The position numbers and the translations under genes are program-made. A model generated the notes under the pieces. That model was not told the origin of the DNA. It did no database searches and saw only the letters and a program-made list of their open reading frames with translations. Of a stretch of DNA of 25,458 bases, positions 18,849-19,175 are shown piece after piece. The stretch is from a virus. Its lineage: Duplodnaviria > Heunggongvirae > Uroviricota > Caudoviricetes. Positions within the stretch are counted from its first letter, which is position 1. Each line of letters begins with the position of its first letter. The stretch lies in the IMG/VR virus record IMGVR_UViG_2778261385_000001; one strand, written 5' to 3'.

Positions 18849-19175
18849 TCAAGGACGTGACGGCGTAAAGATAAATTGTCTCTTCACTCCCTGACAGGGG
18901 CGATTCTTTTCAAATCGCCATTTCGCCATGGCCTTCACCACTTCATCACGAAACAAATTATGAGGCTCTGAGCGGAGAAAAACGATCCGTGTCACAGTCC
19001 CATCAGCACCAATATCGAACTTAACCTCAACCAGCCCCTTGATATAATTTGCTGCAGCATATTCCGGATATCGTGGATACACCGTCACTAATTGCCGGGG
19101 CTCATCAGCTTTTTGCTGCGAGCATCCCACTGCCAGGACAGATAACAGAAAAAGTAGTAAAAGGCGTCTTTTCAT
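18849..19175 (-). CDS. Lipoprotein consisting essentially of a TonB C-terminal-like domain (108 aa precursor)
   Basis: Start at the internal ATG MKRRLLLLFLLSVLAVGCSQ (lipobox LAVGC, Ser at +2). Mature part YPRYPEYAAANYIKGLVEVKFDIGADGTVTRIVFLRSEPHNLFRDEVVKAMAKWRFE aligns motif-for-motif with the E. coli TonB C-terminal domain ([29 protein letters not shown]...FEREVKNAMRRWRYE). Confidence 0.75.
   Translation of the reverse strand: MKRRLLLLFLLSVLAVGCSQQKADEPRQLVTVYPRYPEYAAANYIKGLVEVKFDIGADGTVTRIVFLRSEPHNLFRDEVVKAMAKWRFEKNRPCQGVKRQFIFTPSRP

Follow-up and report, generated by a model that had tools for sequence, protein, structure and literature searches.

The window analysed here is a stretch of 25,458 nucleotides from a virus record of the class Caudoviricetes (IMGVR_UViG_2778261385_000001), and it represents a reversed lambda-like prophage. 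Between its spanin and terminase genes lies an intact gene of 108 codons whose product, hereafter the TonB_C lipoprotein, is a predicted lipoprotein made up almost entirely of a TonB C-terminal domain. We found that this protein belongs to the TonB_C domain family (PF03544/TIGR01352) and is not a TonB energy transducer proper, as both the inner-membrane anchor and the periplasm-spanning spacer are missing. We see about an even chance that it acts as a decoy or shield damping TonB-dependent entry, an idea that is plausible and strengthened by the results below, though unproven. Annotations of the gene exist already for phage 21, ev017, Perceval and RefSeq, so the TonB domain itself is not new here. 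What is new is the picture of a family spread across phages, plasmids and chromosomes, its slot after the lysis cassette, its Fur boxes, the purifying selection that acts on it, and the existence of a TolA counterpart.

A free-standing TonB C-terminal domain behind a lipoprotein signal

The translation product begins with MKRRLLLLFLLSVLAVGC, continues with SQQKADEPRQLV and ends with KRQFIFTPSRP. It is identical to CPT_21_73 of phage 21 and to RefSeq entry WP_000830178.1 ('TonB family protein'). Its N-terminus combines a basic n-region (MKRR), a hydrophobic core of 10 residues (LLLLFLLSVL) and the lipobox LAVGC with Ser at position +2, features by which the protein fits the class of bacterial lipoproteins that are substrates of Lgt, LspA and Lnt. 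By the +2 rule alone, Ser rather than Asp at this position predicts sorting to the outer membrane by the Lol pathway. Although signal peptides differ between alleles, their layout, the Cys and the lipobox are retained, and the lipobox Cys is invariant among the closer relatives. Lipoboxes in relatives read LVMGC, FLMGC, LISAC, LLLGC and similar. The mature protein is 91 amino acids (aa) long, and only seven residues (SQQKADE) separate Cys18 from the start of the TonB_C domain.

This domain matched Pfam TonB_C (PF03544) with an expectation value (E) of 7.3e-13 and 49.2 bits against a gathering cut-off of 24.6, and TIGR01352 with 47.4 bits against a cut-off of 27.1. A phmmer search of PDB aligned residues 24-103 without gaps to residues 151-230 of E. 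coli TonB (E 1.4e-14, 38% identity). In contrast, the models of full-length enterobacterial TonB equivalogs (NCBIfam, PRK10819) gave 45-69 bits against cut-offs of 265-448, and only profile positions ~150-240 were matched. An AlphaFold2 model built on a family alignment of 17 sequences reached a mean predicted local distance difference test score (pLDDT) of 87.5, and exceeded 96 across the domain. The best Foldseek matches to this model were structures of the E. coli TonB C-terminal domain (1u07, 2gsk_B, 1xx3 and 2grx_C), all with a probability of 1.00 and a root-mean-square deviation (rmsd) of 0.9-1.4 Å. They include TonB bound to BtuB (2gsk_B, rmsd 1.0 Å) and TonB bound to FhuA (2grx_C, rmsd 0.9 Å), both with a target-normalized template-modeling score (TMt) of 0.92. 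The C-terminal domain of FusB was also among the structural matches (7zc8, 9hi3), and the viral structures of BFVD contained no TonB_C-fold match for the model. The predicted fold is thus that of the TonB C-terminal domain, an alpha/beta fold with a three-stranded sheet.

The alignment further revealed that the structural and aromatic core residues of TonB are kept. With an offset of n+127, residues Y36, P37, F53, G59, F75, W86, F88 and F103 correspond to Y163, P164, F180, G186, F202, W213, Y215 and F230 of TonB, and the domain region covers the same stretch of TonB that binds the Ton box in the complexes with BtuB and FhuA. Compared to the E. coli TonB C-terminal domain (150-239; 1u07, 1xx3, 2gsk, 2grx), the protein therefore shares fold and family over ~80 ungapped residues, including the YP motif, the aromatic core and the beta3 edge that pairs with the Ton box. 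It differs in lacking the transmembrane anchor (SHLS region), the spacer, the coupling to ExbBD and the last 7 residues of TonB, and in its predicted lipid anchoring to the opposite membrane. Because the protein stops just past beta3, the beta3 edge strand is left uncapped.

The original prediction had described this product as a TonB C-terminal domain exported behind a lipobox with Ser at +2, devoid of TonB anchor and proline-rich spacer, and had proposed a profile search and a structure prediction to check it. The profile matches lie above curated thresholds and the model superimposes at ~1 Å on TonB in its complexes with BtuB and FhuA, which bears out the domain assignment. The motifs it had quoted are all present (YP at residues 36-37, VKFDIGADGTV and FRDEVVKAMAKWRFE), the lipobox fits the expected pattern and persists in diverged alleles, and a cleavable lipoprotein signal and the seven-residue linker stand where TonB has its N-terminal anchor and its proline-rich, periplasm-spanning spacer.

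A predicted competitor for Ton boxes

Without a membrane anchor, an ExbB/ExbD-coupling region or a periplasm-spanning rod, energy transduction by this protein is impossible. Since a Ton-box-binding fold devoid of energy machinery would be held on a short tether where Ton boxes emerge, a competitive and non-productive binder is predicted. In the mechanism that we favor, a lipid-tethered, free-standing TonB C-terminal domain would lie under the outer membrane on a tether of ~7 residues and capture the N-terminal Ton-box strand of TonB-dependent transporters by beta-strand addition at its exposed beta3 edge; the Ton boxes of group B colicins might be captured as well. Ton boxes occupied at the membrane face would no longer be freely available to real TonB, which is scarce, and this competition would dampen TonB-dependent import. 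The lysogen would then tolerate phages of the T1/phi80 type, colicins B, D, Ia and M, siderophore-receptor microcins and albomycin. In the prophage of the window, the gene would act as a moron, modestly and constitutively expressed in the lysogen from its own promoter and probably also transcribed by late-operon read-through. In most relatives, a promoter under Fur control would make the protein rise along with the transporters that it binds, scaling it to their number. We infer the outer-membrane location, the binding of Ton boxes, the inhibition and the protective phenotype, and Ton-box binding is compatible with the modeled fold.

The closest precedents for such a mechanism are engineered. 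Iron import that depends on TonB is reported to be inhibited when the periplasmic TonB domain is overproduced (Howard et al. 2001), and a Ton-box pentapeptide to lower colicin killing and phi80 infection (Tuckman & Osburne 1992), both as summarized in PMC9841981. These dominant-negative periplasmic TonB fragments, uncoupled from the energy source, and the pentapeptide compete at the TonB/Ton-box interface, as the TonB_C lipoprotein is predicted to do. They differ in that the fragments are soluble, overproduced laboratory constructs, whereas the TonB_C lipoprotein is natural, diverged, predicted to be lipid-anchored, produced at native level, and known here from its sequence and a model.

Among phage proteins, Llp of T5 and Cor of phi80, N15, HK022 and T1 offer the nearest likeness, as they are small outer-membrane lipoproteins that act from the periplasm on the TonB-dependent transporter FhuA and exclude phages. 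However, Llp and Cor are specific to FhuA and block its receptor function, whereas a decoy built from the TonB domain would target Ton boxes in general and affect only the energy-dependent step. We found no relation in sequence or fold to either protein: Pfam revealed TonB_C only, and the PHROG matches below E 1e-10 were the profile of the family itself and one family of unknown function. By these comparisons, the TonB_C lipoprotein is not a homologue of Llp or Cor, but it may reach the same outcome as these proteins through a mechanism like that of the engineered dominant-negative TonB fragments. The TonB paralogues FusB and HasB also carry diverged TonB C-terminal domains with altered partner specificity, but they are full-length, anchored in the inner membrane, energy-transducing and encoded beside their own transporter, whereas the TonB_C lipoprotein has neither an anchor nor a nearby cognate transporter gene.

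The target could instead be TonB itself. The tethered domain would pair with the C-terminal domain of native TonB as a strand-exchanged dimer and trap TonB at the outer membrane, giving the same outcome as Ton-box capture through another partner. With ~10^2-10^3 TonB molecules to trap, far less protein would be needed, and titration of scarce TonB fits the low expression of the window allele. TonB C-terminal fragments crystallize as intertwined dimers, and the best structural match of our model is the 1u07 dimer. TonB C-terminal-domain dimers are nonetheless of disputed physiological relevance. Dimerization of TonB in vivo was reported by Sauter, Howard & Braun (2003), a study that appears in the reference list of PMC9249621. 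The identity to TonB is just 38%, and co-regulation with transporters by Fur, as described below for the relatives, suits a binder directed at transporters better. We thus consider trapping of TonB decidedly unlikely.

The gene is under purifying selection and is expressed in lysogens

Existing annotations label the gene 'TonB C-terminal domain protein' in phage 21, 'TonB fragment' in Perceval, and elsewhere 'partial tonB-like protein', and it is annotated in ev017 too. Some of these labels imply that it is the dead remnant of a captured tonB gene. We compared it with a second allele, 67-72% identical and also encoding 108 aa with a lipobox, that occurs in prophages of STEC-like (Shiga toxin-producing E. 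coli) strains with an HK97-type terminase (hereafter the 72% allele). The ratio of nonsynonymous to synonymous substitution rates (dN/dS) between both alleles was 0.10-0.12 with saturated synonymous divergence (dS 1.5-2.2), which excludes a decaying fragment. Furthermore, the length of 108 aa does not vary between the alleles, and a dedicated lipoprotein signal stands in place of the TonB N-terminus. The gene is transcribed and is preceded by a ribosome-binding site of its own, and the family is widespread. Recent capture is also contradicted by the 38% identity to host TonB. A dead tonB fragment is therefore scarcely credible, and we regard the pseudogene reading as effectively refuted by selection, conserved length and expression.

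The expression data come from LF82_160, which encodes the same protein in prophage Perceval of the adherent-invasive E. coli (AIEC) strain LF82. At 8-fold above prophage background, this gene was classed as a moron (PMC9928086). In the supplementary table of that study, its log2 signal was 5.0-6.6 in lysogeny broth (LB), Dulbecco's modified Eagle medium (DMEM) and macrophages, compared to 2.3-4.3 for the flanking Rz, endolysin and terminase genes. It was not significantly induced in macrophages, where bor rose from ~4 to 11 (PMC9928086). These signals indicate that the TonB_C gene has its own, roughly constitutive and modest expression in lysogens. It is thus a moron in the sense of a gene whose transcription in the lysogen exceeds that of the phage genes around it.

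The window allele is common. The 701-bp region around it is 100% identical in phage 21, ev017, PhiR47_2, PhiR57_1 and PhiR63_2, and 99.9% identical in Perceval over the 701-base query, with a TonB_C protein that is 100% identical. Of 5426 complete E. coli genomes, 1221 carry it, Nissle 1917 among them, and a further 414 of this set have the 72% allele. Full-text literature searches returned no functional study of the TonB_C lipoprotein or of any relative, which agrees with the remark in the original prediction that no prophage protein of this architecture was known to be characterized.

Most relatives on phages, plasmids and chromosomes are preceded by Fur boxes

An exhaustive HMMER search returned 2795 TonB_C relatives. 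Many of the best matches are short, at 107-133 aa, and align from residue 1 onwards. Most of these have a lipobox and some an ordinary signal peptide; among short family representatives, a lipobox was present in ~13 of 25. Relatives with 40-62% identity are carried by phages, plasmids and chromosomes. Plasmid members occur in Klebsiella, Pantoea, Enterobacter and Serratia. A chromosomal member of Klebsiella/Raoultella adjoins lacZ-lacI, plainly a non-phage site, and another one in Serratia grimesii lies, likewise outside any phage context, between dsbB and a gene for a CxxCxxCC-domain protein that we take to be YcgN-like. The existence of such members implies that the family is not purely an anti-phage device, which qualifies the decoy reading.

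Other exported TonB_C architectures were also observed, namely a lipoprotein of 152 aa with a domain far more similar to genuine TonB, and long secreted proteins or lipoproteins with 2-5 tandem TonB_C repeats; none has the TonB anchor. The Klebsiella plasmid p90CM2-172k encodes, 2 kb upstream of its intact TonB_C lipoprotein gene, a second 'TonB family protein', which is a fragment of 54 aa (locus L181, 2616-2780).

Comparison of upstream regions across alleles revealed a conserved extended -10-like element, TGT(C/T)AGAAT, 5' of the start codon. It reads TGTTAGAAT in the 72% allele, TGTTAGTAT in the Salmonella-phage allele and TGATAGTAT in Klebsiella/Raoultella, and its counterpart in the window is a candidate extended -10 promoter (Table 1). 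That this element is the promoter of the TonB_C gene we infer only from this comparison; a simple consensus promoter/terminator scan picked up no promoter on the minus strand. A small open reading frame (ORF) lies upstream of the gene at 19193-19330 (-). Loci of the 72% allele share its first ~10 codons (MVEETGxCxT) and the DNA around it, but the length of the ORF is not conserved (45 aa vs 21 aa in those loci). It could be a leader or regulatory element, or nothing.

In the relatives, a Fur box directly follows the -10-like element, while none is found at this place in the window. Fur sites were scored as matches to the 19-bp Fur consensus, and only 0.8% of 1191 control upstream regions reached 15/19. 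The Salmonella-phage allele carries ATTGATAAT(T/C)ATTATCAAT (15-16/19), and the Klebsiella/Raoultella chromosomal gene has the same operator core (TATTGATAATTATTATC or TATTGAGAATTATTATC, 15-16/19). The site of the Serratia grimesii chromosomal gene is GGTAATGAAAATCATTATC (17/19), that of the Klebsiella phage/plasmid type is GATAATGTTGATTATCATT (12-14/19), and the 72% E. coli allele has the palindrome AGAATAAG-A-CTTATTCT (13/19). At their best, the sites of the four lineages other than the 72% allele thus score 14-17/19. These boxes tie the family to the regulon of iron and TonB-dependent transporters, strongly suggesting that its members are regulated by iron together with these transporters. 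The phage 21-type allele appears to have lost Fur control, in agreement with its constitutive expression in LF82.

Such regulation could also point to a positive role in iron acquisition, in which the tethered domain would dock under TonB-dependent transporters or recruit periplasmic binding proteins and aid uptake under iron limitation. Strong Fur boxes precede most family members, including non-phage chromosomal genes, and Fur-repressed genes typically encode uptake functions. The TonB C-terminal domain has moreover been reported to bind FhuD and BtuF. The same type of prophage also carries sitABCD, which encodes an iron/manganese ATP-binding cassette importer, beside the side tail fibre genes. 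These genes lie outside the window, in phage 21 (locus L003, 21967-25416) and PhiR47_2 (locus L002, 1-2377), and occur on the Perceval prophage as well. In several hundred genomes, the whole arrangement from sit to the TonB_C gene is found on one prophage. However, a domain with no link to ExbBD and the proton motive force cannot energize transport, and a Ton box held without pulling should inhibit it. The window allele has lost its Fur box and is induced neither in DMEM nor in macrophages, and sit and the TonB_C gene each occur without the other. An accessory role in iron uptake is therefore, in our assessment, fairly unlikely.

An obligate link between sitABCD and the TonB_C gene was rejected on the same ground, as each gene set is also found alone. 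Uptake through SitABCD is independent of TonB at the outer membrane, and sit might compensate for dampened TonB-dependent uptake.

Lipoprotein-TolA counterparts and the bacteriocin neighborhood

Several plasmids of Klebsiella and Pantoea carry a gene annotated 'tolA' at a distance of 3-6 kb from their TonB_C lipoprotein gene. Its product begins with a lipoprotein signal (LLITAC-S) followed by TolA domain III (Pfam PF06519, E 5e-24), which aligns to residues 336-420 of E. coli TolA. This gene is present in 739 plasmid records, for example on a Klebsiella plasmid (locus L182, 1529-2044). In the lambdoid phage mEp460_ev081 (LR597641.1), two adjacent lipoprotein-TolA-III genes lie between Q and the holin gene (locus L184, 4989-5417 and 5568-5963), and the pair occurs in 776 of 5426 E. 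coli genomes.

These proteins, annotated 'tolA' or 'TolA C-terminal domain-containing protein', are built like the TonB_C lipoprotein, with a lipobox and a short linker ahead of a hook domain that comes from the C-terminus of a trans-envelope energy transducer. As cargo genes, they occur in the late regions of lambdoid phages and on IncF and IncR plasmids, sometimes in the vicinity of the TonB_C gene. Unlike the TonB_C lipoprotein, they have TolA-III in place of TonB_C, and their upstream regions contain no Fur box. By analogy, they may form a sister class of decoys. Both TolA-III and the TonB C-terminal domain are periplasmic hooks used by group A and group B colicins, respectively, and by Tol- and TonB-dependent phages. 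Since both domains are entry hooks for colicins and phages, the lipoprotein-TolA architecture is easily explained by protection, and hardly by iron nutrition. A role of the TonB_C lipoprotein as an aid to iron uptake would leave the TolA proteins, with no iron link and no Fur box, unexplained.

Such a role would equally leave the bacteriocin neighborhood unexplained. On the Klebsiella plasmid pKC25-20925_88kb (locus L177, 6619-7032 and 7229-7717), the TonB_C lipoprotein gene is followed by a gene for an Exc2-family lipoprotein. Also adjoining the TonB_C gene are an immunity gene of the cloacin family and the C-terminal part of an E3-type ribosomal RNase bacteriocin, a remnant truncated by an insertion sequence.

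A conserved slot after the lysis cassette

The gene order in the window starts with J, which extends beyond the left end. Tail and head genes come next, followed by A, Nu1, cos, the TonB_C gene, bor/iss on the opposite strand, Rz/Rz1, R, holin and Q. The cargo slot beside bor that the original prediction had proposed is thus real, the gene adjoining bor/iss between Rz/Rz1 and cos/Nu1. The features of this region are collected in Table 1.

Table 1. Features of the TonB_C lipoprotein gene and of its surroundings in the window.
Feature	Position	Strand	Basis and remarks
TonB_C lipoprotein coding sequence	18849..19175	-	ORF list and sequence; intact ORF of 108 codons, 108 aa
Shine-Dalgarno AGGA	19182..19185	-	7 nt 5' of the ATG at 19175; annotated ribosome-binding site in phage 21
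Predicted signal peptide, residues 1-17 (MKRR + LLLLFLLSVL + AVG)	19125..19175	-	Sequence features
Lipobox LAVGC	19122..19136	-	PROSITE lipobox pattern match; Cys18 codon at 19122-19124
TonB C-terminal domain, residues 26-105 (E. coli TonB 153-232)	18861..19100	-	Pfam/TIGRFAM, PDB sequence matches, AlphaFold2 and Foldseek
Candidate extended -10 promoter TGTCAGAAT	19195..19203	-	Upstream comparison across alleles
Hairpin GGCGTTGT-N7-ACAACGCC	18734..18756	.	Sequence; between the TonB_C gene and a convergent 59-aa ORF
bor/iss lipoprotein gene, neighboring moron	19656..19949	+	Pfam Lambda_Bor, E 1.7e-30; annotated iss in Nissle 1917
Rz i-spanin	19981..20442	-	ORFs and phage 21 annotation of the syntenic genes; directly upstream of the TonB_C gene, same strand
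Rz1 o-spanin, embedded in Rz	20040..20222	-	ORFs; Rz1 Pfam match on neighbors of the 72% allele
Terminase small subunit Nu1	17351..17896	-	ORF list, PhiR47_2 and phage 21 annotations; cos between Nu1 and the TonB_C gene

This position recurs, as phage members of the family always come right after the lysis cassette. In at least five diverged phage lineages, a TonB_C gene follows directly on holin-endolysin-Rz/Rz1 in the same orientation and precedes the terminase, and Salmonella and Klebsiella phages and prophages again have it there. Such a conserved slot could reflect a role in lysis or in the envelope, as a late-operon outer-membrane lipoprotein that is spanin-like or binds peptidoglycan, or as a stabilizer of the serum-resistance type like Bor/Iss, which the gene adjoins. 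PHROG 1267, which corresponds to the TonB_C lipoprotein family, is labeled 'Rz-like spanin', and peptidoglycan binding by the TonB C-terminal domain has been proposed. Nevertheless, the slot is a general moron site, the phage already has a full Rz/Rz1 pair, and family members reside on chromosomes and plasmids without lysis genes. The globular TonB_C fold has no C-terminal transmembrane segment, unlike u-spanins, and no proline-rich character of o-spanins, and Fur control and lysogenic expression are unsuited to a lysis function. We thus consider a role in lysis or in the envelope very unlikely. A spanin identity was rejected outright given the separate Rz/Rz1 genes, the globular fold ending in ...FTPSRP and the missing transmembrane segment. 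The PHROG 1267 label looks like an annotation error carried over from the position after the lysis cassette and the lipoprotein signal.

On its other side, the TonB_C gene converges with a 59-aa ORF at 18547-18726 (+), MVSKSKAHCRRML..., which matches phrog_4843 (E 3e-46) and has a strong ribosome-binding site (GGAAGGA). Both genes share the hairpin between them, a possible bidirectional terminator by its sequence that the consensus scan did not pick up. Phage 21 and RefSeq annotate an antisense 60-aa ORF at 18460-18642 (-) rather than the overlapping 59-aa ORF, and one of these two annotations is probably wrong. Farther away, in the nin region, the opposite strand encodes a 347-aa alpha/beta-hydrolase esterase at 24067-25110 (+) (BD-FAE/Abhydrolase_3, phrog_3341). 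It is annotated 'hypothetical' in PhiR47_2 and is probably another moron.

Discussion

The original prediction had put forward a Ton-box decoy that would block T1/phi80 or colicins, or would modulate siderophore uptake. This reading of the TonB_C lipoprotein gains credibility from expression in the lysogen, the Fur boxes of relatives, the lipoprotein-TolA parallels, the bacteriocin genes beside one plasmid copy and the published inhibition by TonB domains. Several observations weigh against it. TonB residues R158, Q160 and R166 are replaced by T31, Y33 and Y39, and we take these TonB residues to be implicated genetically or structurally in transporter contact (see also PMC11658791). The window allele is only modestly transcribed and transporters can far outnumber its product, while the published inhibition required overproduction. 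Its upstream region has no Fur site, the best match of 10/19 being at background. A general block of TonB-dependent uptake would be costly in siderophore-reliant carriers of the Nissle type or among extraintestinal pathogenic E. coli (ExPEC), and the Fur-induced chromosomal members of Klebsiella, Raoultella and Serratia would fit a positive iron role at least as naturally. The joint occurrence of TonB and TolA lipoproteins on plasmids may reflect a single inherited backbone segment, and the PADLOC defence models gave no match.

Finally, we know of no exclusion phenotype for phage 21 lysogens. With regard to self-exclusion, for which the phage's own receptor would have to be TonB-dependent, the C-terminus of phage 21 J, which lies outside the window, is ~50-55% identical to other lambdoid J types and resembles J of long-tailed Shiga toxin (Stx) phages.

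At a more general level, and with a probability that we place somewhat below an even chance, the TonB and TolA lipoproteins would form a class of "hook decoys". These would be outer-membrane lipoproteins of phages and plasmids that copy the C-terminal domains of TonB or TolA and intercept strands of the Ton-box or TolA-box type in transporters, colicins and phage proteins, conferring broad tolerance to TonB- and Tol-dependent bacteriocins and phages. The TonB branch would be scaled by Fur to derepressed siderophore receptors, and the window gene would be a constitutive member uncoupled from Fur, carried by phage 21-type prophages in ~1/5 of E. coli genomes.

If Ton boxes are truly intercepted, the TonB_C lipoprotein would be a natural and generic inhibitor of TonB-dependent import. 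Its carriers include Nissle 1917, AIEC LF82 and numerous strains of ExPEC and STEC. The gene adjoins the virulence marker iss, and its prophage often bears sitABCD too. The activity of the protein would then alter susceptibility to TonB-dependent phages, such as those of phage therapy cocktails, and to the colicins and microcins of gut competition, including Nissle's own microcin warfare. The response to siderophore-conjugate "Trojan horse" antibiotics (cefiderocol-type drugs, albomycin) would also change, and the protein would offer a natural means to study how TonB locates transporters and lets go of them. Should it prove to aid iron uptake rather than inhibit import, a system under study for 50 years would gain a new accessory component. 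The lipoprotein-TolA parallel suggests a general strategy of mobile elements against both import routes of colicins and phages.

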